Source: Psilocybe cubensis (Eukaryota). From it: a stretch of DNA of 64,000 bases. Shown in pieces: positions 4,554 through 54,722 of the stretch. The position numbers and the translations under genes are program-made. The notes under the pieces were generated by a model. It searched no databases. It was not told where the DNA came from and saw only the letters and a list, made by a program, of their open reading frames with translations. The stretch is from positions 3,844,001-3,908,000 of the forward strand of contig CM039001.1 of the NCBI GenBank assembly GCA_017499595.2. The letters are read 5' to 3'. Numbering within the stretch: the first letter of the stretch is position 1; every line of letters begins with the position of its first letter.

Positions 4554-4571
4554 CACTGCGGGCTCCGATAC

Positions 4572-8715: not shown

Positions 8716-8999
8716 AACGATGGTACATCTCCTCTCAACTTTTTAATAACCCTTGCAGTATGTTTTTCTCTGTCTATTATTTGGCAATACAATTAACACA
8801 CGATAGACTTCGACGATGCCAGCGGGAACATCTGTGTCTATATCCTCCCCAAGTGGGATGATCAATCTTGACAAGGTACGGGGAATTCAGGCTCCAAGAA
8901 ATGCTGAGGAAACGACACGACCCAGACATCGAGGAATGGTATGCCATTGACTACGAAAGTCTTGCAAATTACCCGCCTTAACTCAAGCATAGGTTTGGA

Positions 9000-11765: not shown

Positions 11766-11807
11766 GGTGGTGGTGGTGGTGGTGGTGGTGGTGGTGGTGG
11801 TGGTGGT
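11766..11807. repeat. (GGT)n/(CCA)n microsatellite, 12 nt longer in the right arm (~47454-47507)
   Basis: Direct reading. The poly-Pro ORF is 233 aa on the left and 237 aa on the right. Confidence 0.95.
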
Positions 11808-12429
11808 GAGAGTCGACGAGCGGGGGTTGGATTCGACGATGTCGGCAGCGTGGATAGCGACGCGGACGATGCAGCGGATGAAGACGACGACGATGACGTC
11901 GGTGTGGGCGGGACGAAGTGAATGGTTAAAGTAGACGCAGACATCATACAGTGGGGAAAACCAAAAGCGCCACGATGAGATGATGAGATGATGGGAGTGT
12001 ACAGGTTCGTGTCTAGTGCTTTCATTTCGTCTTGATTTCGTGTTTGGGTTTGGGTTTATAAGTCGGAATTCGAGTTTGTCTGGTGGGTGTTGTGTAAGAT
12101 ATGCTATGCTATGGTGTGATATGTGGTGTGTAACAGTGTAAGATGTTCAGAGCGTACTGCAAGTCGGTGTGAGGTAAGATGAGCTGAGGCGCTAGTGTCA
12201 GCGTCGGTGTAGGCGTAGGGTGTAACCGTAGAACACAAACTGGGTTGGCAAACCAAAAGCCAATGTGAAGGTCGATAGTCGATAAACGGTGTTGGTGTAG
12301 GTGTAAGTGGGCAGTGGGTATACCACGCCATTCTCCCCGCTTCAGATCGAAAGGCAAAGTCAAACAAAGAGTCAACAGTCGAATCGAAAACCCGCAAAAA
12401 GGGGTTGGTGGTGGTGGTAGCACCCCACT

Positions 12430-13425
12430 GCACAACTTTGCCTGGTCTTCCTCGTCGTCTTCGTCGTCTTTTTCTTCTTCGAAATGAGGCCGTCGGAGAG
12501 GATGTGGACGTCGATGTCTACGCCCGTTTCCATGCCCATGTCCCTCATTGTCGACTTCATCGTCTTCATGGAAATCGTCCTCATCATCCTCTGTATCGTC
12601 CGATTCGCTGGGACTTACTAACCCAGGCTCGTCCCCGTCCTGCGCCACTGTAACATGTTGGTTGAATTTTTTCTTCCTCGCTTGCTCTAATTCAAATTGT
12701 ACATCCTCCTGGTCCGTTTCTCCCTGGTTTTCATCGCGTACCGTATGATGTGGGTTGAAGCTTTTGGCATTCATCTTTTTCTTCCTATCCCTAAGAGCGG
12801 CTATTTGGGCGTCTGCTCGCCATCTGTTGGGGTCCACGGCGATGTTTGTGTCCAGATTCTGACGCATTGCCTCCATACGTAGAGCCTCGATCTGACGCTC
12901 ATTGAAAGCGGCGCGTTCCCTCCACGCTCAAGGTTCAGGCTGGCAGGGTCGAGCGGCGCAAAATGGCGGACGAGCCTGGGTTGATGTTGCAGTTGTGGTT
13001 GCGGTGGAGGCGCGTGAACGGGGGGCAGATCGGGGAGCTCTTCCTCTTCGAATACGCCCAGGCGAGCATTCTGCGACATCCATTCACGGAGGAGGAAGAC
13101 GGCAACGAAGATGAGTACAATGAGCGATGCGATGATCAGGCCGGTGAATATGTCTGCCGAGGGCGCTAACCATGCCGGATGTGAAGAAACCTTGGAGAAA
13201 AAATGCTGTTGGATGGCGGCCCAGGGGCTTCGTAGCGAATTCTATCGATAGAGGAAGCTATCAGAAGTGGATATTAGATTGAGATCCCGGATGAGTACGT
13301 ACGCGGATTCTCCCATGGAAAAGACGTCCACACTGTTATGCATGGCAATATTCCTAGCCAGATTGTAGCAACAGCTATAATACGAACAACAGGGAGAAAA
13401 ATAATTGTTGTAAAAGCCGCCGAAT
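12430..13425 (-). pseudogene. Captured fragment of a Doa10/MARCH6-like ER E3 ubiquitin ligase gene (mirror 45836-46831, +)
   Basis: RRLLQQLFFSLLF, IWLGILP, FSMGES and ADIFTGLIIASLIVLIFVAVFLLREWMSQNARLGVFEE, followed by an acidic loop. Stops and frameshifts present; no RING-CH domain. Confidence 0.7.
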
Positions 13426-13510
13426 TACCCGTCTAACGTCACTGTCCGCAGTCCCTAAGCCTAAGTCGTAAGTAAGAGGGAAAGGATACAAAAAATACCC
13501 TCGAAAAATC

Positions 13511-13713
13511 TCGCATGCCCGAGGCATGGTGTTCATGGTATCATCTGGAATACAACTTCCAGATCGCAGTTTGATGTAAGCCAATTGGACAGGAATGCTG
13601 CTTAAGCCGTCCGTTCGAGTAGTATTTGGCCAGATCACTGAGGAGACCATACGCCAACCTCACTAGAGAATCAGAGCGTTCCTCGTCGAAGGCAGCGGTG
13701 AACAAGCTCCAAC
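13511..13713 (-). pseudogene. Captured C-terminal fragment of importin-beta (Kap95-like) (mirror 45548-45750, +)
   Basis: LELVHRC / DEERSDSLVRLAYGLLSDLAKYYSNGRLKQ / DTMNTMPRACE in shifting frames resembles the final HEAT repeat of fungal importin beta-1. Confidence 0.65.
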
Positions 13714-14461
13714 TTAAGTAGTCGAGCACGCCAAAGATGTCGCTGAGCGTCCTAGTGAACTGCGTCGTGATGGGCACGACTTTTGCCTGGCGAGGTGACG
13801 CACATGGACGACAATGCTCTCGTCTTTTCTGTGCCGCTCCGCCGCGAAACGGAGGTGAAACAGTTGTAGAAGTAGCCTAAGTGAAGTGGCAGCCAACCAG
13901 AGATGTCAGTAGGAATCGTTAGTGTTCGGGATAGGAGATGGGCTATACTATGTAAGTTACTACAGAAAATTAGGTAGACAGAACGAAACATACCTGTGTA
14001 GAACAAGAGGAAGGAAATGGTGAAACGAACGACTTGAGTGAGAATCGTGTGCGTCTAATCGCATGGTTAGCAAACGGCGGGTACACTGGAGTTGCGACTT
14101 ACCAGACATGCTTCGAAACTTTTGCGATGTCTTGTTCGCTGACCTGTATCTGCGCTGAATGACTGACCCAATATACAACACTGTGCAGAAAATTGTGTTA
14201 CTTACGGCGAGCGTAGAGATCTCATACATGCTTAACATCTGTGTTGGCACTTCGATTACACCTCACGCACAATATCATTCGGTCCCCATTTCGCTCCCTG
14301 TAGTAGTATTTGTATTATTTACATGGTACACTACGCTAGACTGCCTACATGGATAGCAGCGCTACTCGGTCTATATGTGCTACTTCACCCGCTAGATGAG
14401 CATGGTTGGAACAGAAGAAGAAGAAAGCGTGAGAATATGGCCAGCACGCCAACAAGTACCG

Positions 14462-14544
14462 CAGAAGTTCGATGCCGCTCATGCCGTCGCCAAATTGGTG
14501 ATGCGCGTGATTGGTGGCACGGCATCAGCGGCATCAAACTTCTG
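14462..14544. repeat. 83-bp imperfect hairpin; copies at 16834-16916, 32368-32450, 41873-41955, 44717-44799; half-sites at 15844-15879 and 30369-30393
   Basis: CAGAAGTTCGATGCCGCTCATGCCGT ... ACGGCATCAGCGGCATCAAACTTCTG. Confidence 0.9.
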
Positions 14545-15288
14545 TCCTGTATCATGGCGATTTTGTGACGGTGTGACGCCTTTCCACCTCTCTCTCAACA
14601 CTCACTCCTATGAAGCACGTCGTACGTAGAGATGGTTCGCATACGAGCTTACTGTAGTAGTAGCACTTTAGTGTAGACTCTAATACCATAAACTTAGCTA
14701 GCTGCGTACTCTAGTAATACAATTTTAGTTCAAGTGACATAGACCCGGCTTGGAAGGGCAGAGGAAATAGTCGGGTGAGCGACACAGAACGAGGAGGAAC
14801 TACAATTCATTTGGATAGTGAATTACGCAGAAACATAGGTGCGAATAGTATTTGTATTTACTATCAGGCACAAAACACAAGCCAAAAACACATTCTACAG
14901 CACACCCGCCGCCTCTTCGCCTGCCAGACCCGTATTCGAGCGTCACAAACATAGGTGAGGAATCATCTTTGCTATTAGTGCAGGAAACATATTCTACAGC
15001 ACATGTGCCGCCTCATTGCTTTACAGACCTCACTTATTCAACGACGCACCCACCTACATTCAAGAATTGAACGTTGAATGCTGCCATAACTTTATGTTTT
15101 GTACGACGCTGCCTACTGTAAGCACCCGATCTGCGAGGTACCCTCTTTGCAGGTTGCCGTTTTAATTTGGATTTCACGATATCGGGACTTGTGTAGGATG
15201 TGCACATGGCTTCCGTCGACTCTCCTGCTAATGCAACTATATGCAAGTCTATTCTCATCTGACACGAGTAACGTAAATATCTCATTTA

Positions 15289-15315: not shown

Positions 15316-16442
15316 GTTGCTCTATTGAACCCCACAATTGGGATGACAGCCAGCGCTTTCACATGTTATTTACAACATCCTGATTTAATCAGGGGCTGCT
15401 AGAATTTTCGCTCATTCCGCACCTCGACTCGAGCCATATTTTTGAGAAGTAAGTTCAACCTTACACGCGTGTAGGCAACGCTCGTGTCCTTTCTGCCTCC
15501 GTACTAGTCTCTTGTTTGGTAAAGACCAATATGCTTTCTTACCACCTACATGAGATTATGAATCACCAGTTTCAGCAACGTTAAAAACAGTCGAGGTGTA
15601 ATGAGAGCACCGCAAATAAGCTGCCTTATACTGAGAGCGAGCTAGGGTATGTCTAATTGCACAGTTAACAAACGTTTGACGGTTTTTATTCGCTAAAACT
15701 ACATCTGCGCTAGATGATTGACCAGATATATCTCCCCGGATCCGAATCTGTGTTGGCACACTGTTTTATTTTCCATTGCTCCTCTTGCGTGTTATCATTC
15801 TGTCCTCGTTTCATAGGGACTACATCTAGTATGTAGACTACATGTTCGACGCCGCTCATGCCGTCGCTTGATTGGTGATTGCGCCAGCATCACATGTCGC
15901 CCAATTATCTTATCTTATCGCTGTCAGAATAGACAAAACAGCAAGAGATCCCTTAAGACTGCCGGCGCAGCGCGATGGCAGGCGCAGAGCGAGACCTGTA
16001 CTCGGATAATCCAAGGTGGCTTTACAATACGGATTGGTTTAACGGGCAGCCTATGATCAGATCAGAGTGGTGAAAGTGTCAAAATGAGTGAAGGCATTAA
16101 CAGCCGTGATTCATACGAGTTCTGAGAACACACCCCCGAGATTGTGTGGTTCAGCAAAGAAACAAAAAGATAATTGAGATATCTGGATATGAAGAGCTGT
16201 TTGAATTGCACCAATGCTAACGGAAGGCCACAACATATGTGCTTGTGGGACTCGATGAGAGCCATGAGCAATTCACATAAGATAAACACAGTCCGGCTCG
16301 ATATGGTGCAATCCAATTAAAACAGCACCTGCAAAGGGGGTACCTCCTAGACAGAATGCTTATCGTAAGAAGCATCGCAGAAAAAAATATGGCAGCGTTC
16401 TGTGAGTGTGGCGTCGTTTATTAAGTGACGTCTGTCAGGCGA

Positions 16443-17090
16443 CGAGGCGGCGCATATAGAATATGTTTTCCATACTAGTGATAGCAAGATGATTCTCACC
16501 TATGTTTCTGTGTAATTATGTGACCTCGAATGAAGGACTGGTGGGAGAAGAGGCGGCGCGTATGCTAGAACATGTTTTTGGTTTATCTTCTCTGTACTGA
16601 TAGCAAAAGATGATTCTCACCTATGCTTTTGCATAATTCACCAGCACATGAATTGTCATGTTCACCGGTCTTTGAATTAAAGTTATTATGGTGTTAAAAT
16701 CTACGTTAAAGTATCCCTACCGCTAAGCTAAATATTTGAATCGAATTTACATTCGACCCGCCGCATTGGAGAGTGGGGGTTGTCAGAGAGGAAGAAAGGC
16801 GTCACACCGTCACAAAATCGCCCTGATACAGCACAGAAGTTCGATGCCGCTCAAGCCGTCGCAACATTGGTGATGTGCGTGATTGGTGGCACGGCATGAG
16901 CGGCATCGAACTTCTGCGGTACATGTTGGAGAGCTGGACATATTCCCACGGTTTTCCCTTCTTTCCTGCGCACCATCCTGGCCACGACGTTCGGCGGGGC
17001 TGGTGAACCTGAACCTGTCGAAGCAGCACGTTGAGATTGAGTAGCGTAGCAATTTATGTACATGGACTAGCGTAGTGTGCAATGTATATA
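16443..17090 (-). repeat. Diverged, inverted copy of the internal hairpin module (cf. 14330-15015)
   Basis: Shares GAGGCGGC, GATGATTC(C)TCACCTATG, GAAAGGCGTCACACCGTCACAAAATCGCC and the hairpin, with many substitutions and indels. Confidence 0.8.
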
Positions 17091-17670
17091 GTACTAGATC
17101 AGAGGAAATATTCTGCTACGAGATGAGGACGGTGACGCGTCAGAGGCATGGGGATCATATAGACTCTACCACCCGGTGCGATGTCTAGCGTACGCCCTGG
17201 TTTTGTAGGAGGTATGATGCTGCACATTTGGTCAGTTATCCACACAGATCCACCTTTAGTGAACAGAACATCTCTTGGTTGGTGAGTCGCAACTCCAGTC
17301 TACCCTTCAATAGCAAAGCACACTGACTGCTTGCGGACCGTCCCGACCGTCCCAAGGAAAATTACAGACTGCTTGCTGAGCGTCCCTGGAAAAACTACAC
17401 TCACTTATTTCTTACCGAAGGTGCTCGTTGCACCGTCTGCTTCGTCTTGCTTCACTTAGGTATATTCGGTACACTCTACATGCAATTTCTTACAACTATA
17501 AACTTAGATTGAGTGCGTCGCAGCAAAGGAGGCCACAGGGCAGCTCTTAGCACCCACAAGACAGCTCACCTCCTTCCTTATGTTTTTACTCCAAGGTAAG
17601 CGTTCATCTCATAGCCGTTTATTAGCTGAAATTTATCGTTTCCGTAACAGTACTGCCTAATCCCTACTGT

Positions 17671-18550
17671 CTATTCTGCATCATTGACTCCTGCGATGTT
17701 GGCAAGGGCAGCTCGAACCCGAGCGCTTTCCCTCCTCCCCTCGACACGACGATGTGCCTCCGCCCTATATTTCAGCTTCAACTTCAACACGCTATGAACT
17801 GGCCAACATTTATCGTAATCCCTGAGAACCGGCCAACGCCTAGTTGCCTACCACGTGTGTCAGCCTTGCTTTTGAGTAGTAAAACAAACTGGTAATTACC
17901 TCTTGACATATTGCTTCAATTTTTTCCTTTTTCTGAGATCTGTAGCTTTTACTCATATCCAGCGACCTCCTTGCTTCTCGGGTGATGTATCCCTACGGAC
18001 AAAATCAAGGCATCAGTCAAGTATGGTGAGCCACTATTGATTTACATACCACCATATCTCCTATATCTTCCTCAGACCAGTGGAAGTCGTCCCTCAGGAC
18101 TGTCTGGATATTAAACCCACCACTTCCCCGACGGCCAGGTTCTCCCTTTGGCTTCTTATACATTTCGCCTCCTGGGACCGGCGAAGTCACGCGAGGATGA
18201 GAAGGCCCCGCCACTTGGAGGATCATAGCGGGATCAATGGGTTGCCCAGGATCGACCTGCACATGAGTTGCTGGTGTTGCAATTGAAGGCCCGATTGGAG
18301 GGACAGGTACGGTGTCCTGGCCTGAAGGTCCCTCTGCCTGTATGAGCTCTTCAGGCCCTGGAGCTGCGACGGATGATGGCTGTGGCGCGGCTCCACGCGG
18401 AATGGCGTGTCGCTGTAGCAGCTCTGGAGTCCATTGGATACGAGGGGTAATCTTAGGTAGAGGTTCTTGACTGGGTAAGAGGAATTCGATCCGGGGAGTG
18501 ATGAGGGGGAGATGACGAATGTATTCGTGTGAAGGATGCGAGGATGACAT
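17671..18550 (-). CDS. Element-encoded protein of unknown function (3 exons)
   Basis: MSSSHPS...KKPKGEPGRRGSGGFNI...W, then spliced GYITREARRSLDMSKSYRSQ and RDYDKCWPVHSVLKLKLKY...DAE*. Confidence 0.7.
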
Positions 18551-19180
18551 GGTATATGTCGAGGAAAGATTGTGCGTTTTTCTTTTCATTCACTATTTGT
18601 AGTTTCGTATTCGTCGCTCAATCATCCCCTTTGTTTATTCTATGTAACGTCTCGCTCTTCCGCAGACACTCATCCTCAGTGTGCACGTCAAATCTCAGTG
18701 CACGTCAAATACGCACCAATTGTTTCGCAAAGTCGCTCTGCTAGTGTCAAAGATTGTTTGATCGATATCTTCTCACCGTAGGGGTAACCATTGATCGCTA
18801 CCTATCATTCTTTCATCAATATCTATTTCAGGGAGGGCTCAAGAAAGCATCATTTGTCTCTACAATGAGTGAAAACCCCAATGACAATATTATCAGACAT
18901 TGAGCCTTAGTTATACTGAAAATGAGCCTTAGTTCCAATATGAATACGGTTTGGCGAAAACGTGACAAAAAGGCGACACGACTCAAAGGGAGATGTTATC
19001 TTTGACGAGTTATCTGTGACTCGTCAATGGCCAGTGCCAAGGGTGTCACAATGACTTCCGGCGGCGCTGGCGGTAAAGTACTTAAAGAGCAGGAGTTATC
19101 ACCAGTCGTAAACGATTCAAACCATCAGCACCCGCCATGGCAAGTGTAAGCTTTGCATCCTGTAGTTGTCGCCCGCTGAC

Positions 19181-20966
19181 ATGTTCGATAGGAGAATTTC
19201 GCAATATTCAGAACATATAAGTTGCCATCCATTCTGCCTATCAACACTTTATTGTTCTCAGAGGACGCTAGACTCTTAATATCTGGCGGTGAGTCTTTTC
19301 CTATCGTCAGTGTTAGGTAATCTTTAATAAGAACAATATCATACTTAGGAGATGACGAGACGGTATATGTCTTGGACACAAAAACGGGGGAATGCATTCA
19401 AACTCTTGAGGATGACAACTGGGGACAAATCACCACAGTTGTCTGGGGACAACAGGAGTTACCCAACAGAGAAAACGGCGTTGTGTTATGCATTGGCACG
19501 GGGAGAGGGTGTTTGGCGTTGGTTGCGCTAGACTATGATGCCACCGAAGTACTTCTCTTTCTCGTTTCAACTTCCTGTGTCCTTACATTCTGTATATCAT
19601 TCCTTAGCCATTCCCAGTAGGCGCGAACACATCTCCTGTATTTGCGTTCAATGACTCTGTCGAGAAAATGGCTTTCGACAAGCTCAACAATCGATTAGCC
19701 GTCACAAGTCACTCCGGTGAGATCAAGGTTTTTGCAGTAAACAACAGTAAGTACTCTTGTCAATCGCCCTAGCACTCAAACCACACGAATATGGTACTCC
19801 TAGCTTCCTTGAGGTTATTGTGGGCCGATAATATTGGCAAAGTGATCACCAGCGGCCTATTCTTTTTTGGGGGGTCGAATCAAAGCCTCTTGACCATCGG
19901 GTTGGAGACATCGGAAATGTGTGTTGATGTTTCTGTTTCCTTGCAATATATTCACGAATTTCTACCACAGGAAGTGCCTCGATGCTTCAAAGAGAGGTCC
20001 GCCATTATGGACGAAACATTTGATTGGTGGGATGTATGTGCTACTTTATGGAAACCCTCCATTATTTTGATAAATTTTTGAATATTTGACAGTGGAAGCG
20101 CGTCTCTGTCCAGCGATGAAACGTTGCTTCTTGTAGACAACCTTGCTACCGGTAACTTCGACGTCTATCAGATCGCCGACAACTCCCCTCTTCGTTCCCT
20201 GCCAATAGGCTCGACCCGTCGATTTTCCAAGCAATGCGCCTTCTTTGAAGGTTCGAAAATAGCAGTTTGCGGCAGTGACACCAATAAAGTTTTCATTGTG
20301 GATGTCGCAAACAACTATGTTGTTCAGACACTGACAACATGTCGAGGTTCGACTTTTCGCTTACCCCCGCATTTCAGTTTATTAATTTGTGGACTTAGGT
20401 ACTTACATGACACAAACGGTCTGTGTTACTCCATCGTCATCGCGCAACGTCTTTGTCGCCGCCGCATGTCGTGGCTATGTATATATCTGGGAAAAATCAA
20501 CTCCTCAAGTCCAGGTAAATGTTCGCGCAGATGACCCTCCCCCTTCGAGGTACCGTCGCGTTGGATCCGCTATTTTGCCTTACCTGGGATTTGCTGTCGC
20601 TGGTACTGTCGGCCATTGGTTACCACACGCCTGGAAGGTGAGCAGCTTACAATCCTTTTGGCATTTGACAAACTAATGATATTCAAGTTGGGCCAAGACA
20701 TAATCATGAAGACTGCTGATTATCTCATCCAGAATGGCGCAGATAGGACGATGGAACTTCCAAGAGAAGCTGTTGACAAAATCTTCGAGATGGCGGCAGC
20801 GGCCTCGAGGGCTTTGGATATGTCGTCGGCACTGGTGTCGTCGAGGACTCTCGACATGGCTGCTATTGCTACAACAACATACACGGCTGCTACTGCGACT
20901 GCTACGATGACATCCCCTTCTGCTACCTCTCTTTTTGACATGGCAGCAGCAGCGGCTGGCCATTAG
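19181..20966 (+). CDS. WD40-repeat (beta-propeller) protein, multi-exon
   Basis: INTLLFSEDARLLISGGDDETVYVLDTKTGECIQTL, VEKMAFDKLNNRLAVTSHSGEIKVF, IAVCGSDTNKVFIVDV; GT-AG introns. Confidence 0.8.
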
Positions 20967-21114
20967 AATCTGCATCTGCGTATCCTTCTAATTTGAAACG
21001 TGCCCTAGATTTCTTTTGTACATTTATGATATCGGATAATGACATTTTGCTGAGTAACCTGACTACATGCATCGAAGCTATGATCTACACAGTTTTCCAT
21101 TATGTTCTCAGTGG

Positions 21115-24100
21115 TCAAAGAATTTGCCTATCTACAGGTCGGAGTCGGGATAAAGATACACATACAGCGACGTCTCTATCTTCCCATGGGATGATACATT
21201 TGGCAAAGTGTCCTTCTACAGCTGAAAAAGGAAGGACTTCGAGGATATCTTGGACGTCGGTTCCCCATAGTTTGGCACGAAAATGAACCCACGGGATATA
21301 AGGATCGTATTTGACCCCCGCTTCTTGGTATCGATTAACCACAAACCATATATCATCCCTAAGTACTTTTTTAGGAAACTTGAGGACATTCTTGATACGG
21401 TAGGGCACATTTGACGCATTGAGGACCCCGCTATTGCCTTCATGTACGTCCCAAGATGTATAAGATATCCGACCAACGCGATAACGGTTTGTATACATTG
21501 CCCGCGCGGGCACGGTTGTCACACCATACCGTAAAAATGCCCGAGTAATGTCCATCTTTAACACCACCGCACGTCGATCATCGTATGGGATGGCTTCTTC
21601 TTGAAGATCTTCTTCGCTTTCCTCGTCGTCTGTCTCAGTGTCATCGTCGGCCTCAGCATTTGCGACATCGATTGTCTCTGCTTCTCCTGCGAGTATGTAC
21701 TGTCCTTGGGGCATCACCAACTTGCGAAAGATCGGCCAACAGTCCCGAATAGCTTGTGGACATCCTGGTCTTTGAAAAATTGCCATAAGTTTGGACCTTC
21801 TGTGCCAGGAAGTCGCAATTGTTTCCTCGTACTCGCCTACTATAGATCAGTAACCATGAAAGAGCAGGCAACAGGTAAAGCAAATTACCTTGCTTGTAAT
21901 TTGTGGGAATTCTTTGCAGCATCCCAATCATACGTTCGAAGGGAAACGTCCACCAACCATGAACAGGCCCATATTCGATGATAAACTCCCTCATATGCAT
22001 AGCCATATGATGATTAGGAACACACTGGTAGCTTGGAAACAGCCTTGAAAGCTCGGAACGGTATTGTACCATCAAATTCAGGTATTCATTGGCCATAGCT
22101 GGTGATGCGACCCGGGAAGTGATGACAGATATGGCCTCAAAAAGAAGCATCGTGAGGCGCAAAAGTTCTCGACGTGTTTGGGCAGGTTTCGAATGGTCAA
22201 TTCCCGACCATATTCGGATGAGGGTAACTGGGATGTAAAGTGCTGCCGCAATGCGCCATTGGTCTGATTTGAGTTTTCCACTCTTTGCGGACATCGACCA
22301 GGGTAACGACGAGACCCATGACGGTTTTACCATAGCTGCAATGTCTCGTCGGATGGATTTCATGTCTTCTGCTGTAAGTATCTTTCCCTGCTTGCCATCC
22401 ACTTCTGAAGTAGCCTGGCTTGACTGTGACTGGCCGAAATTTTTAGTTGTTAGAAGAATTGAAAAATTTAACAACGTACGGATCTTTCTTTACGCTATTC
22501 ACCGCGTATTAAACTATCAGATTGATGTTGAGGTAACGACGATGCAGACGTACCCATTGAACAAGCATTTGGGCCAGATCTTCTTTCTTGACTCGCATCA
22601 TACCATTTAACGTGTCCCGGCCACGATTGGTGATGGTAGAGGGTATACACCCCAGATGTTTACCAACAAAAACAAGGGCTTCTGCTGCGGTCTTCTTTGC
22701 CAACTCGTTTGCTACGTCGGCATCTTCGATTGGAAGAGGCTCTGCCAACCATTTTCTGATGATGCGTATTCCTTTTTGACCAGACTCTGAGGTTGGCAAA
22801 GGATTACTTTCATTGCCCTCAATGTTTTGTAATATAACGCTATCGCTCGATATAGGTGTTTGTTGTTTCTTCTTCTGCTTGGGTAAATCAGAACCGTCAC
22901 CGAGAATGTGCTGAAAATGCTCTTTGATGAGTCCAAGAAAAAGGTTATGCATCGGGTCTACAACAAGGCTCATGGTTGGCCGATAATAGGGCAATCGATG
23001 AAATTCTGACGTGCGCAATCCGGATTTGTCGAAAAGGCTTGCAGCGGCCTTTTCGGAGGGGGCTGCCTGGTATTTCCAGGCACCATCTCGACATTCGTCA
23101 TCGGTGCGCCATGTCCATTTTTCATAATCGAAGTTGTTGAATGTATGCACAGTTTTACTACACCAGCACATCGAACAGAAATATTCCTGATTGTATGAAG
23201 AAAATCCACCAGCCTTCCGTGCTGCAGGAAGATCGGCGATGATTGCAAGAAGAGCACAAAGAATAATGCGCCCCATAGCGTAAAGAGCGGTGCGCGTAAA
23301 AAAAACACCCACCCAAAACAGCAGGAAAGTGTCAACAATAGGGCGGAAGTATGGGTTTGCTGCTTCTAGACTGGGTTCATTGGGACCCGGAATAATACCC
23401 GCGAGAAAGATGTTTTCAGGTTTATATCGAGTAGTTATGGGAAGGTTGAGGCATGTTAATGCGATAACTCCAATTGAAATCTTCTTTCCAGCCGTAAGAT
23501 TACGCAAAGGATTAAAGAAATCAAAGCCGAGTGAAAATAGATAACGTCCAGTAGTTTCATTTCCGGATACACCGAAAAATTTCTTATCGCATCCCTTGAA
23601 GTTACGGATGCTGGAAGACTGAAAAATATCGTCCATGCGCCCATTTTCTTGAACAGGTTCGAACGTTTTCTTCCAAGCACCGTCCATTGCTTCCTCGTAT
23701 CCTCGACGCGATAACATGCCACCAAGCCAGTCCTGGAAATCGAATGATAGGAAGGGTTTGATGGGTACATTAATGGTCTTATTGCTGTATCTCTTTGGCC
23801 GGACAAGAAGTTCCCCACAACGATTACCGAACTTCCGGGCATTGCATCGTTCGCGATAGGTAGAAATATCGTCCTCTAGGGTTGGCTTGTAGATTTCATT
23901 GCACTTTGGACAAGCGGCATACACGATGAACTTCGAATCAATGTCAAAACGCTTGATTGCCGCTCGAACGTCTAGAGGAAACGAACGAAGAACTTGCTCG
24001 AGCCAACGAGGAAGGATTTTGTCGACAAAGATAGCCTCTCCCGTTCTTTGAGCGATATATTCGCACATGGAAAAGACAAAATAGCACCCACGTCGAGGAA

Positions 24101-24948
24101 ACCTCAATATAGCGTAGCAAGAAACAACCATAAGGTTGATCATCTGCATCGCGTCAATTATCCATGGGGGTAGCCAAGGCATACTGTATGCATAGGGAAG
24201 GAAGGGAAGGAAGTGGTGCCCTAGGGTCGATAGTTGATAAATAGTTCATCGAATACAAAGTGAAAAATAAACATGCTCGCTCACTTGAATCGTATAAATT
24301 AGGTACGCTATCCTGAATAGAAACTCGCTGGCGAGATCTCTTCGTTTGCCTCTCCTTCCATGTTGCCTCTACACGGTCTACATCTTCATTAAGTCGCTCG
24401 ATATTTTGGTGTGCATCATGTCGCAAAGATTTGATCGAGGCTTCCTTGCGCAAAGGACCGGATTTCGTAAAGTCTAAATCTCTCGATGCGTTGGAATTAA
24501 GAGCTCGTACTTCATGGCAAAGTTGAATTGCCTTATCAATTTCCCCATTGCTGAAATATTTCTCTCCTGAGATGTCAATGGTGTTGATTTGTTGGGCACG
24601 AAGTCTGGTATTGTCTAGAATATCTGCAATCAGAGCCACGATTTTTTTCTTCTGTTCGTGCTTGTACTGCACTTCCTTTTCCTTGATCGTCTCGGTGTCC
24701 GGGTCCTGAACAGATAAAAGTTGCATTGCTTTCTCCAAGGTGGTTTCGACCTTCTCCATGGCCCTTTGCTGCTCAAGGATCGCCCGTGATTCAAGATTCC
24801 TCTTCATCTGACCCACGCTTTCCTCGTGTTGGTGCTTTTTATATGTAGATGGCGACAATTGAACACCTGGCTGTCCTGTGACAGGATCGCGTTTCGCGCC
24901 GCACCCATGCACAGTGCACAGGCAAAACTTGGCTTTCCAAACCGGCAT
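21115..24948 (-). CDS. CACTA/EnSpm transposase (Transposase_21/Tnp2 family), apparently intact, 1202 aa
   Basis: Exons 24948-24285, 24220-22554, a 15-nt exon near 22490, 22429-21889 and 21836-21115 total 3609 nt in frame. Motifs FSLGFDFFNP, CLNLP..RYKPENIFLAGIIPGP.EP, DLPAARK, CSMCWC, VDPMHNLFLG, PNHH...H, FPFERMIGMLQ. Confidence 0.92.
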
Positions 24949-25479
24949 AGGTCTGTCGAATCAACCAGAATATCGATATCGATGTGGTAACGGTTAAGCA
25001 ATGATAAGAGAAATTTTACCACATGAGAAATTATTATGCGATCACGCAGCTGCAGCTGCAGCGGAGGCAATGACCCGGAGGAACTCGATAAGGTGATGTC
25101 GCCGAAACGCCGAGGCATAACAAAGGGACTGAGCGATGAAAGACTAGCGTTTTCTTTTAAAGCGCTTGTTCAGGAACTTTCTTCATTACCCTCACCTTCC
25201 AAACACCCAGCACAACTGAGTCTAGTCGTCCAACTAAACTATGTCTCAACCTTCCAGGAGTCGTAGTAACAGCAAATCATCCGTAACAGGGGCTACCCCA
25301 ATATATACCGCGATGCTTTCCCGCGAACACTATATAAAGGCTGTTAGCGCGAGATCAAGAAAGAACGCAGGGGTAAGTTGTCTAAGGATTGATTGAGGCG
25401 CATTTTTCAATGATACATTACCTTCTGTTAGAAGTCTGCTTCGAGGCAACGCCGGTCTCCTGAAGCAGGGGACGCTAGC

Positions 25480-26800
25480 ATGGTGGCAGGGCCATCGAGA
25501 TTCCAGGAAGTTGATGATGACGACATGGACCAATCCTTTGAATCCAATTCAACTGCGTTAGTCACCAACACCTTGACGTCCAACAAAACCCAGGCTGCGG
25601 TGCGCTTGAGTATAATGATTTATGTATTTCAATCTGACAGTACATACTTTCACCAGGGGAGTATTCAAAGGGCCTACACGGCCCCAATGGTCTCGTCCTT
25701 TGCCGAGAACCGTGAGGTTTCCACCGAAGGTCCATCGACAGAGATTGCGAATGTGTCGGTGGATGCTGGGAGAGACAATCTTATGACCAGACGTCCTCCT
25801 ATACAGGTGGCCAACGTGAATGCTATATTAGCCATACTCCCAGGCCGGAATGAATTGTTTCCCGCCATTCAACATAACCGATCTATTGCCAATGGATCGT
25901 ATGCAGCATCCACCAATGTCCAGAATGATCGAGGCATAACCAATCAACAAAGCGGAGTGGATGCTGGGATAGACCAAGTGATCATTAGTCAAGTACGCCA
26001 CGATCATACGCCGTCGACTTTAGCACTAATCAACTACTTTCGATGAACAGGATGAATATGACAGGCTGAAGTCCACTTCAAATGCTGCAAGGTTGAGAAG
26101 TGATGATATAATAGCGACCGTAAGAATAATGAAATGATTCATAAGGAGGCGACTTACATCTGCATCCATTTTCCAGGTTAGAGAAGTTCAAGCCGACAGG
26201 GAGCGCATTGCCGCCCTTGAGCGAGGTCTAACCGAGCAGGGAGAGACGTTTAAATGGGTTAGTTTGGTTTCTTCCCTCACATAACCTTATGACGTTTATC
26301 CGAGACCGTCACACTTTTTAAACAATTATATTATAGGAAATTGACAAAGCGAGCAAGATGTATACTGAGCTCTTGAAGGAGAAGGTGGCCCAGGAAAACC
26401 TGTACCTTGAAACGAAGAGGGTAAATTTACAATATGACCGATATCGATAATGTTAATGACAAATTTAAATAGGAAAATGACAGGTTGAAGGAGCTGGAAG
26501 AGACAGTACTTGGATTCGCAAAATGCACAATTTGCTATGAATTTATGGAGCAAATTTGCGTGTAAGCCTTTTCGAGAACTGTGTTTACAGATCAAAGTGA
26601 CCTCAGAACATTATCACAGCTTTGCTTGTGGTCATGTTTGCTGCAACGATTGCAGGACAAAGCTCGAGTTATTTGACACACTGAGGTGCTGCTTTGTATG
26701 CCGCACATTTGTTCCAGATGAACAACCCCTCTCGCGTTACCATCCCCTCAGCCAGATTCTGTCCAATGTAAAGGATAAGGCTAATGCAGAGGGTGTTTAG
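25480..26800 (+). CDS. Multi-exon protein with C-terminal RING-type zinc finger
   Basis: The last exon has ELCLQ...ACGHVCCNDC...CFVCR (C3HC4-like). Upstream exons are low-complexity or coiled. Exon structure only partly resolved. Confidence 0.65.
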
Positions 26801-26944
26801 AGTAATCCTACTCCCTCTGCACGCTGCAGCTTCTGTTCGAGGTGATCATATAAGTATATAGCAAATGAAGAATGTCATGTTTCATACCAGAATTTATATT
26901 ATCTTCACAAGACGAGGTGATGGTAGAGAAATACCAAAAACAGG

Positions 26945-29900
26945 TCACAGTATCTTTTTCTTGTACTGGTCTTTTAACTGAGTCATAACATTGGAGTTGA
27001 GGTCTCTGTCTTTCTTGGACTCGGGAACTGAACACAGGAAATCCGTGCTGAGTATAAATCGCTCGCCAGTTAAAACGTCTACACGATCTTTAGATCGGGT
27101 GACTACAGCGACCAAGACAGTTGGATTATCCGAGGTGCCTTCATGATGAATGCGACGAACGAATTTCCCGCAATGTTCCCCCTTGATAACCACTAGAGGC
27201 CCATTGTCATGTATTCGATTTGCATACTTCGGAGTGACCCAAGCGGGGTCCACCATAGTCCATGAACTGTACTTTTTGCACCTGAGTACGAGGTTGTTTG
27301 CATCCCAAACCGTTGAGGCGACTAATGTTTTATTGCTGAACTGTCCGCCGTTGACTACCACATTCAGGCTGATGTCCACCAGTTTGGGGTTTAAGAGAAC
27401 ATGTTCGCACACAGAAGAGGAAGTCGTATGACAGTTTGTTTCAGATGAGGAGGAAACAGATGTAGAGACGTCTGATAACGCAAGACTTGTTGGCGAATGA
27501 GCAGTTGGGTCAGGTGTCCTTGAGGAGGGGTCCCAAGCTGGAGTGATAGATTGCGGTGTACCGATGGGTGTCCTTGAGGAAGGATCCCAGGCTGGAGTTG
27601 CAGTGGGTTCTGAGTACATCGGTGTGCCGCTCGCTGACGCAATCGTTTGCGGTACGCCAGGGAGAACGCGGACGTGCTTCATGGAAGACTTAGGTATAGG
27701 ACGGAAAAATTTTGGCCCAGGATCAAGGAAAAGAACGAGCTCATTGAACGTCCTTGCGTACAAGTTAGACAGAGGGTACATGCAATGACAACACACTTAC
27801 GAAAGTTCGACGACATCGTCATAGTCCACAACGATTGTTTGGAACGGTGCAAAGGGATTAAAACGGGTGAGTTGAATAACGAGCTGCAGTCCGGCGTTGT
27901 CTGTATGATGAAGGACGTCTTTGATTCGTCCAGTCTCACCCTTGCGTGGGTGAAGATGCTTCTGTATAATGACCTCTAAACCAGTCCATGGGTGTCTTAA
28001 AAACTTGGTGTGGACTGGGTCTGACTCCGATAATAATGTCACATCGACAAGAGGTAGGGGCTCAGTAAATGAAGTGTCCAAGAGATTGACGTGTACCGCA
28101 AAATGCTGTTGAAAGGTATAGCCACGTTAAGAGAAAAACCGGTGAATATGTCAAGCTGCAAATTTACTCACTTCCACAATCTCAACCTTGTTATCATCTC
28201 CTACCCCAGAATTAAACTGGTTAGATGCTGCTGTTGTACTGACCACAGCGCCCTGGTTGTACGACTCCTGAGCTGCTGTTGGTTTTCCTACTCCTGTGAC
28301 ACACGAACTCCCTCCCGGCATCGACATTTCTTCTTCATCTAACGTTGCTGCTGATTCATCCAAAGTTAGAGCGATATCCGAATGCACCATTATACCCCCT
28401 GGCATCATTTGCGCTTCTACCGCCGTCCCCAGATCTGTCTCCGCCGAACCTTTTCTCAGATCATCGTTCCCTGTCGGCACGGGATATTGTTCTTTTCCGT
28501 TGGTGGGCGTCGAAGATGTTTCAGCATTTGTTTCCACAATGGAAATGCGACCATGCACCGAACTTTTCGTTATTAGTGCATGGTCTCCATGGATTCCAAC
28601 GACCCAACCTCTGTGATCGAAATAGGGGCCGCTCACAACTCGAACGAATTGCCCGATTTTTGGTGACTTGAGAATGTCTAGCCATGTTCCCCTAACACTG
28701 TAGCGGATTTCACGTTCACCTTCGATTGTTGATTGTTCTGCTTCAACGTCGTATGTGTCCAGCTTTTTCAGCACTGCAGGTTCCCACTTTGCAGACCGAT
28801 TCGCAACGTCGGGTGTACGAAAAAGAACCTCCTCTTCCAGTCCTAAGCACCATTCCCGAGGACGTGGCATACGCGCTCGCATTATGTCGGGATGATTGGT
28901 GCTCCTAAACATGGAGAAGTGGGAATACGGAATATCCATGACGGAATTTGCGATGGAGGTATAGTCGAAATCCTTTTCCAACAGTCCATGGTCAAACTTG
29001 AGAAGTCCAAGCGTGTATGATCCATCCGCATTGCGAATAATGGGAGTAGAAATGAGTTTGCGGGCTTCTTCAGGGTCGAAAAGTTTTGCTGGGGGTACTA
29101 GTACCGATGACTTTCTCTTTTGTGACTTTGCAGATTGCGAATTTAGCCGAGGAATGAGAAGAACCTGAGCGCCCCAGGAAAAAGTCGCTGAGATCAGTCC
29201 AACGTCTCCTTTGTATATGCCTTTCTTAACCAAAACCCAGGTCCCAACCTCAAAATCCTTCTTGACATCCCTCATCGTAAGAAGTTCGTGCTGATGGTTC
29301 CGATCCACTATTTCGCGCTTGACTCCAAGGTGGTTACGAAGGATTCCGGGCGTGGACAAGAGCAGATTCACGAGGGCTGGATCCATGATACCTTCAACGT
29401 AGATACTTCCGCGTATAGAGCCGCGAGTAAATGCGGAACGAATATGGTGGATCTCCCTTGCGGTCTGGAGAAGGGATAGGACAGCTGCATCCTCAGAGCC
29501 GATCTGCAAAAGTTGATAGAAAAATAATCAAGGGATAGGTATTCAGACTTACCCGACATCCAACCCTCCAGAGAGGATAGTCATTCTCAAGCGGAAGACG
29601 CGCAATCTTCTCCTGGAGCATGGTTATCCTATCTTCCTCCTCCAAACGTATAACCGGACGTGGTTGACGAGGGCCCTTTGCTTGAGCCTCCAGGCGAGCC
29701 AGTAGTTGGTTAAATGAATCCTCCTCGCTGTCATCTTCTGGCCTATGGAACGCCATAGAGCCTATGTGATCTTCCCCGTCCACTTCCGCTCCGTCGTTAA
29801 TGAAGGCATCTGTAAAGACAGTCAAATCAAGTCTATCGCAACATTCTGAACAGCTCGCCTTCAAGGTCCCGTTCTGCAGACGTAAGCTGCTCATCGTCAG

Positions 29901-30050
29901 AAAGCTCTCCATCATCAGCTACCTGTGCCTCCGTGTCCAGAAATTGGCGGACGTTCCTCATAACCTAGGGAGAAAAAATCATGAGTATCAAGATGCTTTG
30001 AACAGAAATCAAGCAAGCCTACCCGCTTCATCCTTTGGACTGTGTCGTTC
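26945..30050 (-). CDS. Spt5-like transcription elongation factor paralog (NGN + KOW + short CTR); start approximate
   Basis: AFINDGAEVD; NGN-like LWRVGCRIGSE..IRSAF....RGSIYVEG; KOW-like GTWVLVKKGIYKGDVGLI and VLLIPRL..PPAKLFDPEE; GQFVRVVSGPY; two TPAWDPSSRTP repeats; terminal LVVIKGEHCGK. Confidence 0.85.
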
Positions 30051-31374
30051 GATGGAAATGAACAAATTTAATTAGATGATCAGTTACCACTCTGACTTAG
30101 GAATCGGAATCTATATGACGTTGGTGTGCTCAGTAAGTTTTTTTCATCTTCATTACGATGGTGATCTCATTTTCATTTTCCAACTATCCAAATCTATCAC
30201 TGAACTACGTGTAATAGTACATATTCTCGTTCCGGTTCAACGCCAATGCAGAATCCGTGGCGTATCTTACCTGGAATGACAGCCCCTGAGCAACGAGGAG
30301 ACAAAACGGTATGGTGGAGAGAAGAAGAAAAAGAGCGTGGGAATGGGTGGGGGGCTGTAGAAATGGCGCAGAAGTTCGATGCCGCAAATGCCGAAACATA
30401 TCACGTGTTAATGTTCCTCGGGCATCCCGGGTGTGGATGAGGGTTCAAAACATTGAGAGCTGAGCGTCGTGCTGAAACTTATCAATGCGGAAGCGCTCAT
30501 GTGAACACTTAAGCTCGTATCCTGTTAAAAATGCATGGTGAAACCTATTGTAGGGAACCTAGACGATGGAGCGACACGAAGTAGTCGGCTCGTCCTGAAT
30601 GAAAAATTCATAGAAAATGGACATAATAAATTATTGACATGACCGTTGAGACAACTCATCCAGAATAAAATTTAGGGGCAGAACCAAGGGGCACACCGTT
30701 AGTTCCATCAAAAACCAAGGCACAAGTTATGTATGGCGTACCCAGGTCTATGCTACCGCGAAACTAAGTATTTCGTTGCTTGCATATTCAAAAGTACGTA
30801 CTACAGTTTACAAACAGTGGGAAATCAGCTACTCTACAAGAGTCTCAGGTGTTTGTATTTCCGAAGGAAAATAAGCACATTCAAATAATCTTGTAGTGAG
30901 CGGCGACCTTAGCATTTTGTGAGCCCAATAATTCGAGTATCAACGGTAGATATATTTGCGTGGAAAACGGTAAAAACAGACGAGGCCGTACTTCCAAGGA
31001 CCCGCAGAAATAAGTTAAGGAGAACATCCTGGTTCATTGATCCAATCATGTAGATAGGGTCACCATGACACTGTAATAGAAGAAGCGCGGTTGTAAAAAT
31101 ACAGGGCCAAGTCCTCAATAACGAATATGTGAAACATACAAATTAGGCACCTCGTCGTCGAAGTCGACAGATTTGCGGGCCACGTTGCGGTGTCTACCAC
31201 AACCTTTGCGATAATAAACATGGATAAGCTCGTACAGTTAGTGAGCAATGCAGAGCGGTGATGAAGCTCTACACATAATATGTCACTGAACATCTCGTGT
31301 TCGGGAGAGTAAATTCGGCTTACAGTACGTGTAAAACAATACCTCACGGCGATTCGAGTTCGAGGGTGAAGTGG

Positions 31375-39772: not shown

Positions 39773-40338
39773 ATGGTTTCTGCACTTGCTAAATATATCC
39801 CACGGACTAGGGTGAGCAATTTCGCGAGGATACTTGACGTTCTTCTTAAGGATTCCAGGACACCTCGCTATCATTAAGAGCGCGCTACTATGGCGCGCAC
39901 GCAGAAAGACCCGTGAACAAAGCGATACACACCCTTCAGAACACAAGCGGCAGAAGCCCCCGTCTCGACCTGGTCATGGGAGGGAAACGCCTGCAGCCAT
40001 ACATCCACGATGCTATTGTTTCAATTTCGAATAGAGGGAAGATTGCGCAGTTTCATGTCTTTGTCAAGAACCATTGCAGGCTCCCCCCTAACAGAAGCAT
40101 TTGGAGATGGAGAGTGCGCAATTGGAAGGGTGATATTGTCGTCTTTAAGAAAGGAAAACACCAAGAATTGGTAAACCTCGGGGGGCGCGACAGAATTTTA
40201 GCTGATTTTGCGACCAAAAGGTGAGGCCGGATGCCAATATGAAGTTTGACGACACTAACAACCCCTAGTTTCATTCAATCAGTGAATCAAACCAGGCCAT
40301 TCAAAATCCCGAAAAACCTGTTTTTTGTAAAGCATTAG
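39773..40338 (+). CDS. Small three-exon protein of unknown function
   Basis: Splicing gives MVSALAKYIPRTR/DTSLSLRARYYGAHAERPVNKAIHT...FHVFVKNHCRLPPN...WKGDIVVFKKG...FVKH*. Confidence 0.65.
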
Positions 40339-42639: not shown

Positions 42640-44069
42640 AACTGGGTTTGGGGCAGTCTGTAAGTTGCGATGGAGGTGTATGCAATCAAGGATTCACGAC
42701 GCTTTATAAGAAGCAAGAACAAAGGCAATCTCCGCGACAAAATATCCTGACCAATCTTGACAAAGGTATTAACTAAATGAGCGCTTTATTCGCTCAACAC
42801 CCATCTGAACATAGAAAATGACCTACCAATGAGATATATAGAAGCTAGAGAAGGTCATGTATTTCTACATACCCACACTTACCCCGGAATGCGAGATTTT
42901 GGGAAGGTGATTTCATGATTTCAACTGGCGGAGATCATCAATGATCAATGGGATAATATATAGTTTTAATATCCACTGTCGGTCATACCGCCATAACAAC
43001 GTTTATCGTCATTATGACGGCGCCAAAGGGCGTGATTACGTGGCTGCATGAGCGACATTGGAATTGTTTGCTATGTCAAAGCGCTCCTGCGACAATGCCA
43101 TCTTTATCCCCTTTCCCATAACTCTTCGACAAAGAGAAACAAGATAAGATGGATCTTTGTTCAGAAAACATTTAAAAGGTCAATAGGTTAATATGTACTC
43201 AGTACGATATTTCCTGCTGTAAGAAACTTCATGATGCCCGTGACGAGGGAAGGCCACGATGTAATTCTGAAGCATATCGTCATCGTTTCGTGGCTGATCC
43301 GTACTAATCATTCCTACAGGTCGATAACCACAGTGATGACAATGACTATCAGAATCAGAAGCAAATGATCGAAGCAAAGTTGAAAGAACTAGTAAGTATT
43401 TTAGAACATCATTTTATTAAATCATGACAAAACTTTGCGATGACAGATTTCAATGATGCGGGCTGTATTTTGTGACACCCATGGTAGACGCGAAAACGAC
43501 GATGAAGACGGAAAAAATAGTGAACAAGACGAGCAAGACGAGGACTTGGATCCTTGGCCGGCGAACAGCAAACACTCAAGGCGCGTTCAATGGCGGCTGG
43601 GGCGCAAAACTAAGCGATCTCGAAGGAATTTCAGGCGCAGAATGAGGGGTGCTTCGCGCTCTCCCAACAAGCTCCGCGGGTCCGACTCCGACTAGTGGGC
43701 AGACAACAAGGTATGGGGTTGTGCGCTGGGCAATGGCCGTGTTAGACTGTTGAACGAGATTTTAAACCACCCACTGGCAGGACAAATTGGGGTTGGAAAG
43801 TCACCGAAGATTATTATATCAAGTAGAGCTTGGGTTAATAAATTTAGTATATCAATTGCAGATATTGATGAAGCGACATACTTCATAGATTGAAGAGAAT
43901 TATTAGACGGGAACATCTCGCGTGTTCGAGAGAGTAAATTTGGCTTACAGTACGTGTAAAACAATTGAGACTGGTGCCGCTCGAATACCTGATAGAAAAA
44001 AGACGGAGCCAATCTATAGTTGCATAAGCAGGAGACTCGACGGGAGCCATGTGCAAATCCTGTATATTC

Positions 44070-54719: not shown

Positions 54720-54722
54720 AAC

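Follow-up and report, generated by a model that had tools for sequence, protein, structure and literature searches.

To our knowledge, no transcription factor other than Spt5/NusG is conserved across all domains of life, and specialised paralogues of Spt5/NusG are known from very different organisms. On RNA polymerase II (Pol II), the NGN domain of Spt5 is placed at the clamp together with Spt4, KOW1 lies on the upstream DNA, KOW2-3 follow, and KOW5 is found at the RNA exit. In ciliates, a development-specific Spt5 paralogue represents a lineage-specific host gene tied to transposon control. In bacteria, RfaH, ActX, TaA, LoaP and UpxY are specialised NusG paralogues of mobile or acquired DNA, which displace the housekeeping factor on RNA polymerase; long element operons are then transcribed fully and silencing is escaped. 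Here we describe Spt5L, an Spt5-like gene of the fungus Psilocybe cubensis, located in a stretch of 64,000 nt (CM039001.1, 3,844,001-3,908,000) that we call the window and whose positions serve as coordinates throughout. We conclude that Spt5L is very probably a transposon-borne paralogue of Spt5. That it is the cargo of a large transposon of the EnSpm/CACTA-Plavaka type and acts as a Pol II-docking substitute for the host Spt5 is, taken as a whole, our best explanation, to which we grant slightly less than an even chance.

Spt5L is encoded on the minus strand (26945..29961) in five exons (29961-29859, 29809-29553, 29503-28172, 28105-27801 and 27752-26945, with the TGA at 26945-26947) and is intact, yielding 934 aa in the present model. 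Its stop-to-stop frames on the minus strand are all open (29493-29918, 28151-29527, 27797-28126 and 26945-27796). An earlier note on this DNA had described long open exons with no obvious disablement, and this description holds with a single caveat: the introns are GT-AG, except for the first, which is GC-AG (GCGAGC...TTACAG, 49 nt). The interval proposed in that note, 26945..30050, was right at its start, while its end at 30050 lies about 20-90 nt past the likely start codon, which we place at 29961 and which the UniRef model places at 30031. The UniRef protein in question, P0005 (948 aa; source label Psilocybe cubensis 'Chromatin elongation factor SPT5'), equals the window protein in 899 of 900 residues from 'DAFINDG' to the end, so that the differences comprise one residue and the N-terminal gene model. 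At the first intron there is an in-frame stop, which the UniRef model evades with a mini-intron of 19-20 nt and the NCBI model with another frame; both public models are less plausible than the GC-AG model, with which the paralogue P0006 agrees by reading ERDLE|DAFINDG over the first-intron join.

By homology and predicted fold, the protein is a diverged, complete-looking Spt5 paralogue, in which an acidic N-terminus is followed by NGN, KOW1, KOW2-3, KOW5, two repeats of the C-terminal repeat region (CTR) and a KOW6-7-like tandem. The NGN-like and KOW-like motifs claimed earlier were borne out by HMMER, as P0005 exceeds the Pfam cut-offs both for Spt5-NGN (PF03439; 24.7 bits, cut-off 22.4) and for KOW (PF00467; 31.8 bits, cut-off 22.3, residues 418-443). 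The main exon alone reaches only 15.2 bits on PF03439, because the first NGN strand sits in the preceding exon. KOW1_SPT5 (17.5 bits) remains under its cut-off of 22 and the Spt5 CTD model PF12815 (16.6 bits) under its cut-off of 25.4; KOWx and KOW4 gave no Pfam match at E<=0.01, and Spt5_N (PF11942) gave none either. The FLDxEAxVDD...FIDD motif of the N-terminus nevertheless aligns with the Spt5 of K. pastoris and with P0158, a canonical-type Spt5 taken from the protein search, and among the relatives P0131 passes PF11942 (25.4 against 24.2), with P0071 below it at 18.2.

AlphaFold models of P0005, made with the family alignment, show confident folds for NGN (residues 125-215), KOW1 (220-345), KOW2-3 (355-450), one further KOW (615-680) and a C-terminal tandem barrel (800-925), with disorder predicted for residues 458-574 and 689-793. 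For the full model, Foldseek fills its first 24 places with Spt5 chains from Pol II complexes. The NGN coding region (29261..29582, minus strand, spanning the intron 29552-29504) is modelled at pLDDT 80-89, matches the human SPT5 NGN (3h7h_B) in Foldseek with TMt 0.72 and is also aligned to P0158 by hhalign. KOW1 with its linker domain follows on the same strand at 28871..29248 (Foldseek 4ytk, TMt 0.81, rmsd 3.0; the Pfam score is the sub-cut-off one given above), and the KOW2-KOW3 tandem at 28556..28843 (minus strand), which carries the KOW motif GQFVRVVSGPYFDHRGWVVGI recognised by PF00467, aligns to KOW2/KOW3 of K. pastoris Spt5 and of P0158 at a pLDDT of about 90. In place of KOWx-KOW4 there is a putatively disordered acidic linker (28184..28534, minus strand; pLDDT <50 over P0005 458-574), a stretch that is filled in 2 of 22 members and thus subfamily-specific. 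Exon 4 encodes a KOW5-like domain (27803..27997, minus strand), for which VIA-align, the source of all Z values given here, gives matches to S. pombe Spt5 (residues 726-796; Z 9.4), to KOW5 of K. pastoris (5xog_W; Z 8.5, rmsd 1.5) and to human KOW5 (Z 7.9, 29% identity). The earlier count of only two TPAWDPSSRTP repeats is correct; they lie at 27598-27566 and 27544-27512 (together 27512..27598, minus strand) and appear to be the remnant of the Spt5 CTR, of which the family consensus retains a single PAWDPxSxTP. The chain closes with a KOW6-KOW7-like C-terminal tandem beta-barrel (27017..27394, minus strand; pLDDT about 96), similar to human DSIF (5ohq; Z 11.3, rmsd 2.2, 104/110 residues; Foldseek E 1.5e-4). 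As modelled, Spt5L is therefore a nearly full Spt5 domain chain without KOWx-KOW4, in which two CTR repeats replace the array.

The profile of the family, built from 22 members and compared with chains of the Protein Data Bank (PDB), points in the same direction. It matches K. pastoris Spt5 from the acidic N-terminus through NGN, KOW1, KOW2 and KOW3 (E 1.1e-57), is covered by S. pombe Spt5 over profile positions 4-602, matches S. cerevisiae Spt5 as well as human Spt5 (E 1.9e-46) and, more weakly, reaches Arabidopsis KTF1/SPT5L (E 5.6e-31). At the same time, the divergence from canonical Spt5 that had been read from the window is confirmed: the bit scores of P0158 are NGN 82.9, Spt5_N 75.9, KOWx 58.3, KOW4 65.7 and KOW5 83.7, models on which Spt5L scores low or has no match, and hhalign of Spt5L against P0158 gives a probability of 99.9 at 24% identity, with an alignment that ends past KOW3. 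The family conserves a strand motif, SAFTRGSIRGxIYxE, which as a sign of binding to Spt4 and the Pol II clamp is only suggestive. An Argonaute-hook array of GW/WG type is absent from Spt5L, where the 948 aa hold one GW and one WG.

Spt5L is not an ordinary housekeeping SPT5, for which a single conserved locus would be expected. At least 11 NCBI loci of P. cubensis, belonging to three subfamilies, bear the name 'Transcription elongation factor SPT5'. Ten members make up the 90% cluster around P0005, namely 5 NCBI proteins on five contigs that differ in length and 5 sequences found only in UniRef, and the copies of this subfamily 1 are 98-99.9% identical, with most differences stemming from the N-terminal gene models, which disagree among the public P. 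cubensis SPT5 records (P0005, P0159-P0170, P0006, P0008). Subfamily 2 (P0170, P0168, P0008) comprises five NCBI accessions, two of its sequences occurring at two loci each, and is 99.4-100% identical internally and 43% identical to subfamily 1. P0006 is a singleton at 77% identity, whose divergence from subfamily 1 resides chiefly in the linkers and in which one of the CTR repeats is lost. Since Spt5 is universal, we infer that P. cubensis also has a separate canonical SPT5; among the Basidiomycota clusters of the ESM Atlas, one SPT5 cluster scores well and two others score weakly, which is a lead only.

Two kilobases downstream of Spt5L and on the same strand is a transposase gene of about four exons (21118..24960, minus strand), which is Transposase_21/Plavaka-like and belongs with the EnSpm/CACTA group. 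Its 578-aa frame at 22512-24245 attains 36.2 bits on PF02992 (Transposase_21; cut-off 28.6), and PF18759 reaches 14 bits, below its cut-off, while being on record for the nearest relative, P0178. Relatives with 30-49% identity come from Panaeolus, Armillaria, Mycena, Galerina and Ganoderma and align over 24224-21142. Raw-read DNA runs with the P. cubensis species label (X12 and X13), mapped on 15300-31650, cover the stretch 15846..31133, inside which transposase and Spt5L both lie, at an even multi-copy depth: over its 28 bins the depth per bin is 122-185 in X12 and 119-164 in X13, and 15420 of 17687 reads (87%) and 14275 of 16538 reads (86%), respectively, are >=99% alike. Given read totals of about 1.63 and 1.73 billion letters and a P. 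cubensis genome that we take to be about 46 Mb, the depth would correspond to about 4 copies of the unit, if that genome size is right. Variants in the reads over the stretch occur in part as many minor ones at 10-25% and in part at 83-89%, fractions that do not fit a single-copy locus in a dikaryon. Independently of depth, the five near-identical protein loci imply that reads from several copies must stack on this stretch, the cargo protein being dispersed over five contigs. Moreover, a contig of 10,275 nt from run X9 bridges 16895-27169. Together, the even depth, the variants and the bridging contig indicate that transposase and Spt5L are situated in one repeated unit.

This unit is larger than the stretch of even depth. 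In the last depth bin of the mapped interval, the first 270 nt of a repeat, R, would stand at about twice the unit depth, and 92 loose-end reads at 31377 bear the flank seen at 43695-43724; the junction 43724/43725 thus has about the same copy number as the unit, which would accordingly extend to at least 45.3 kb. The loose ends at 16789 and 31377 were considered as ends of the unit and rejected, since other R copies in the window explain them. R measures 2.4 kb and is present four times in nested inverted order (31377-33732, 13915-15241 inverted, 40615-42009 inverted and 43725-45346 direct), with a partial copy at 16771-16954; each copy bears an 83-nt near-palindrome on CAGAAGTTCGATGCCGC, which the window contains 11 times where 0.1 would be expected. 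An open frame of 856 codons (36314-38881, minus strand), located between two inverted R copies and containing internal tandem repeats spaced 177-672 nt, has weak coiled-coil-type Pfam matches only (Tropomyosin, 20.8 bits). Frames at 19321-20966 (plus strand) within the multi-copy unit show faint WD40/beta-propeller similarity (E 0.03-0.04) and are possibly a further cargo gene. Most other frames of the unit have no Pfam family, and nine of its ATG-to-stop frames found no exact match in the protein collection.

The ends of a candidate transposon can be placed around this unit at about 4538-55427, giving an element of about 51 kb whose exact terminus and target duplication are ambiguous. The left end (4538..4960, plus strand) reads GAGTCTGTCCGGTAAC-CACTGCGGG... 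and then passes into subterminal repeats; the right end (54353..55427, minus strand) presents the mirror subterminal repeats, CAGTG at 54715-54719, an insert and, at 55412-55428, the closing 16-17 nt of the terminal inverted repeat. Two inverted arms of 10.7 kb each, 99.7% identical to one another, extend inward from there (4554..15241, plus strand, and 44015..54719, minus strand); their outer ends begin CACTGCGGGCTCC..., a CACTG motif stands near each end, and their inner edge falls within R. About 370 nt inside each CACTG end are dense in ATGTTTGAT/ATCAAACAT in both orientations. The ATGTTTGAT 9-mer was counted over the whole window, where 0.95 matches are expected: six of 13 matches lie at 4572-4920 in the left end, and 12 of the 13 are subterminal. 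In its pattern, this arrangement is the one classically seen next to the termini of EnSpm/CACTA elements. At 4554 and 54719, the CACTGCGGG... ends have AAC on both flanks, and a first reading took CACTG as the termini with AAC as the duplication; it was weakened by an inverted homology that continues 16-17 nt outward (4537-4553 against 55412-55428) and leads to GAGTC...GACTC ends with TTA on both sides. Because the inverted homology runs past the CACTG ends, we place the putative element at about 4538-55427. When the two flanks are joined, no open frame runs across the site. For comparison, Kojima (2025; PMC12730594) gives EnSpm ends as CAC..GTG with a 3 bp duplication and Plavaka ends as TGT..ACA or CATCA..TGATG with 2-3 bp, and places Plavaka beside EnSpm. 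Altogether, the same-strand transposase nearby, the even depth it shares with Spt5L, the five copies at >98% and the CACTA-like ends support, within P. cubensis, the earlier suggestion that the gene is borne by a transposon.

Further features accompany these ends and arms. At a distance of 16-17 nt inward from the right element end lies a MITE-like insert of about 693 nt (54720-55411/14), whose inverted ends (AACGATAATTCC...) measure 79 nt. The arms contain frames of a mitochondrial carrier (Mito_carr, 7783-8702, minus strand; 52 and 43 bits), of Peroxin-3 (9719-10417, minus strand) and of an endonuclease/exonuclease/phosphatase (6772-7936, plus strand), as well as an importin-beta-like piece (13544-13876, minus strand). 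The arms themselves could have originated by gene capture, by inverted duplication or as a fold-back of the assembly.

Beyond P. cubensis, 1.84 billion representatives were scanned in full with HMMER, which retrieved 510 family matches (representatives at <=50% identity) at E<=1e-3, of which 198 reach E<=1e-10 and 64 reach E<=1e-30; many are fragments of 250-450 aa. Of 20 representatives that were looked up, 19 had a source name (with the order confirmed for three species), and all 19 are agarics from at least nine species: P. cubensis, P. cyanescens, Panaeolus cyanescens (at least 7 representatives), Panaeolus papilionaceus (at least 5), Pholiota conissans, Pholiota molesta, Flammula alnicola, Dendrothele bispora and Armillaria novae-zelandiae. 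Many of the family genes are found on contigs of 3.6-19 kb. The Pfam NGN cut-off is passed by 17 of 23 long members, the best with 38.2 bits. In a quick maximum likelihood tree (24 rows, midpoint-rooted on the long canonical branch, with long branches flagged and SH-aLRT as the sole support measure), P. cubensis subfamily 2 groups with a P. cyanescens protein (100), this pair groups with subfamily 1 and P0006 (99), and three pairs unite Panaeolus cyanescens with Panaeolus papilionaceus (99, 80, 100). Such cross-species pairs indicate that several Spt5L lineages are older than the splits between species. The folded domains are kept in 19-22 of 22 aligned members at a mean pairwise identity of 29-37%, and members that are 25-45% identical keep open frames of 690-1290 aa. 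Domain retention together with divergence centred on the linkers argues, with good probability, for long-term purifying selection on Spt5L.

The differences between copies seen in the reads reveal a separate pattern. Mismatches of X12 to the window consist of 65 C>T, 61 G>A, 11 T>C and 7 A>G, such that C>T and G>A make up 126 of 160 places; 16 of the 23 such transitions shown are in CpG context, 11 of these 16 in TCG. This excess fits the deamination of methylated CpG or a process on repeats that resembles repeat-induced point mutation (RIP), and a pattern of C-to-T at CpG says nothing about the function of the Spt5L protein. The window copy itself is free of CpG depletion (observed/expected 0.93-1.05, against 0.84-0.86 in the flanks). 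Structural differences were also seen: 238 nt at 15531-15768 are skipped by about half of the reads (74 in X12, 40 in X13), which is a deletion polymorphism between copies or nuclei, and some copies of the unit have extra insertions at 18564-18568, 23771 and 25907-25914 (runs X12 and X13). One of these insertions ends TGTCAGGG...CCCTGACA (TGT..ACA, as reported for PlavakaA) and another is of CACTAGTAGCTGCCACTTA type; neither motif occurs in the window. The CACTA-like end motif read from the loose ends at 25907/25914 has 0 matches in the window and comes from another element inserted in some copy.

How could a transposon profit from an Spt5 of its own? The parts that hold Spt5 on Pol II (NGN, KOW1, KOW2-3 and KOW5) are retained in Spt5L. 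We propose that Spt5L would dock on Pol II through its NGN and KOW domains, probably together with the host Spt4, and would replace the host Spt5. The resulting elongation complex would be an altered one, because Spt5L is without KOWx-KOW4 and without nearly all of the platform that the phosphorylated CTR provides. The element might then use Spt5L so that the polymerase reads through the long transcription units of the element itself, or to weaken silencing that acts co-transcriptionally. That Spt5L serves element expression or anti-silencing as a Pol II-bound factor in this manner is a tentative reading, for which we see a fair way less than an even chance.

Several observations weigh against this account and against its transposon part. 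No RNA run is among the read sets found to contain the stretch, and two runs presumed to be RNA share almost nothing with it. The ends were read from the sequence alone and allow either TTA with GAGTC or AAC with CACTG, and inverted arms of 10.7 kb with host-like genes are unusual for a CACTA element. A single protein search with the transposase exon frame 21656-22489 returned 10 matches at E<=1e-10, the best being Panaeolus cyanescens CVT24_009431 at 47%, and contained no match from P. cubensis and none with a locus tag adjoining an Spt5L gene. The figure of about four copies is built on an assumed genome size and on a stretch without a single-copy control. In addition, the first intron of Spt5L requires a rare GC donor, with public models in conflict at the N-terminus, and the coding differences shown between copies, eight in number (4 synonymous, 4 not), are too few to speak for constraint.

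Among the other explanations, the one that survives best sees Spt5L as an accessory of transposition, either as a tether that takes the transposase or the excised element to Pol II-transcribed or open chromatin, a role in target choice, or as a second CACTA protein beside the transposase. In keeping with it, Spt5L shares a strand with the transposase and lies immediately upstream, the loss of the CTR platform and of KOWx-4 fits mere docking on Pol II, and plant En/Spm, which requires a second, fast-evolving protein, TnpA, offers a parallel. We nonetheless consider it unlikely, since Spt5L has no evident DNA-binding domain for the ATGTTTGAT subterminal repeats and since a full Spt5 chain that includes KOW5 and KOW6-7 exceeds the needs of a simple tether.

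CACTA elements are also gene-capturers, and Spt5L might be a copy of the host SPT5 that was captured by the transposon and is intact merely because the copies are young. Copies that are 98-99.9% identical render intactness a poor proof, the eight coding differences are evenly divided, RNA runs containing the stretch are missing from the read sets found, the first intron has its GC donor, and the arms of the unit bear other host-like genes. A neutral passenger would, however, hardly be expected to leave 510 representatives at E<=1e-3, nor members that are 25-45% identical and still keep their frames and folded domains, 17 of the 23 long ones above the NGN cut-off. The divergence between P0005 and P0006 is concentrated in linkers, and two subfamilies at 43% identity have each been recently amplified. 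Neutral carriage is for these reasons quite unlikely.

A third possibility, which we hold to be very unlikely, is that Spt5L belongs to a specialised Spt5 family that serves the host in small-RNA or methylation silencing, similar to SPT5L/KTF1 or the developmental Spt5 of ciliates, and merely lies in repeat-rich DNA. Silencing Spt5 paralogues do exist, the family profile matches Arabidopsis KTF1, and the boundaries of the element come from sequence, without an empty site having been seen. For a host gene of this kind, one or few stable copies would be expected; instead, near-identical copies are present on five contigs at the same depth as the neighbouring transposase, several lineages per genome occur on short repeat-type contigs of 3.6-19 kb, and a GW/WG array is absent. 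That Spt5L is simply the canonical SPT5 of the organism, as its public label 'Transcription elongation factor SPT5' would have it, can practically be dismissed in view of at least 11 loci, 24.7 against 82.9 bits on NGN, 24% identity to P0158, two CTR repeats only, the lack of KOWx, KOW4 and Spt5_N matches and, merely as a lead, the separate Basidiomycota SPT5 cluster that scores well in the ESM Atlas.

Returning to an Spt5 that acts for the element, a small open reading frame (ORF) deserves mention. ORF X (39856..40221, plus strand; about 120 codons) has no ATG at the homologous start and belongs to no Pfam family, and the Atlas returns basidiomycete hypothetical clusters only. By tblastn it is 59% identical to residues 1-117 of the subfamily-2 protein P0170, 58% to the separate 134-aa P0171, whose accession number adjoins that of an Spt5L gene, 52% to the separate 140-aa P0172 and 49% to the N-terminus (residues 13-117) of the P. 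cyanescens protein P0157. The X protein KAH9474230 is numbered next to the Spt5L protein KAH9474229, and homologues of X are directly upstream of, or fused to, the Spt5L of subfamily 2 and of P. cyanescens; X thus appears to accompany Spt5L in three lineages. The window copy of X is located 10 kb from Spt5L on the other strand, within a segment of 6.9 kb between inverted R copies. We speculate that CACTA/Plavaka elements of the Agaricales could long have carried their own Spt5 as a 'private DSIF' that would take the place of the host Spt5 on Pol II at the element and protect the element from co-transcriptional silencing linked to methylation or RNAi, with X perhaps as an Spt4-like partner in some lineages, a possibility that we regard as rather doubtful.

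If Spt5L is what we propose, it would come from the first mobile element of a eukaryote that is known to carry the gene for a factor of the NusG/Spt5 family, mirroring factors of the RfaH and ActX type, and would place a new class of cargo alongside the TET/JBP dioxygenases that transposons carry. Spt5L would also provide a natural Spt5 variant without KOWx-4 and CTR, useful for dissecting the roles of those parts, and would make it testable whether a transposon rewires Pol II elongation to escape silencing. In practical terms, the public 'SPT5' annotations of P. cubensis, at least 11 in number, probably mark transposon genes. Full-text literature searches turned up no description of an Spt5 borne by a fungal transposon, nor of any transposon-encoded case in eukaryotes. 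The main text of Muszewska (2017) has 0 occurrences of Spt5, KOW and NGN, and the main text of Kojima (2025; PMC12730594) has 0 occurrences of 'Spt5', 'KOW', 'NGN' and 'elongation'.

Among the systems described so far, the closest in build is canonical Spt5, the large subunit of DSIF (K. pastoris 7wbv_W, S. pombe 8qsz_Y, human 5oik_Z), with which Spt5L shares the domain order, a TP-containing CTR motif and the KOW6-7-like tandem. Unlike it, Spt5L is only about 24% identical, is without KOWx-KOW4, has two CTR repeats instead of an array, scores at or below the Pfam cut-offs and exists in many copies per genome within a transposon-like unit. The plant protein SPT5L/KTF1, a partner of Pol V in RNA-directed DNA methylation (8hyj_W), is likewise a lineage-specific paralogue with a changed C-terminal half, and is matched over NGN-KOW1; it is, however, a host gene directed against transposons and has a long GW/WG array, whereas Spt5L is multi-copy, lies inside an element and contains one GW and one WG. 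With regard to the carrier, Kojima (2025; PMC12730594) describes genes for TET/JBP dioxygenases in fungal KDZ, Plavaka, EnSpm and other transposons. These too include basidiomycete cut-and-paste elements of the EnSpm/Plavaka groups with a second gene that is likely aimed at host silencing, and the difference lies in the Spt5L cargo. With regard to the mode of action, Spt5L is not a member of the bacterial NusG paralogues, which consist of NGN and one KOW and are recruited by a DNA signal, whereas Spt5L has the eukaryotic multi-KOW build and no known recruitment signal; the likeness would be an analogy in how they work, a factor encoded by mobile DNA that takes the place of the housekeeping one on the polymerase.

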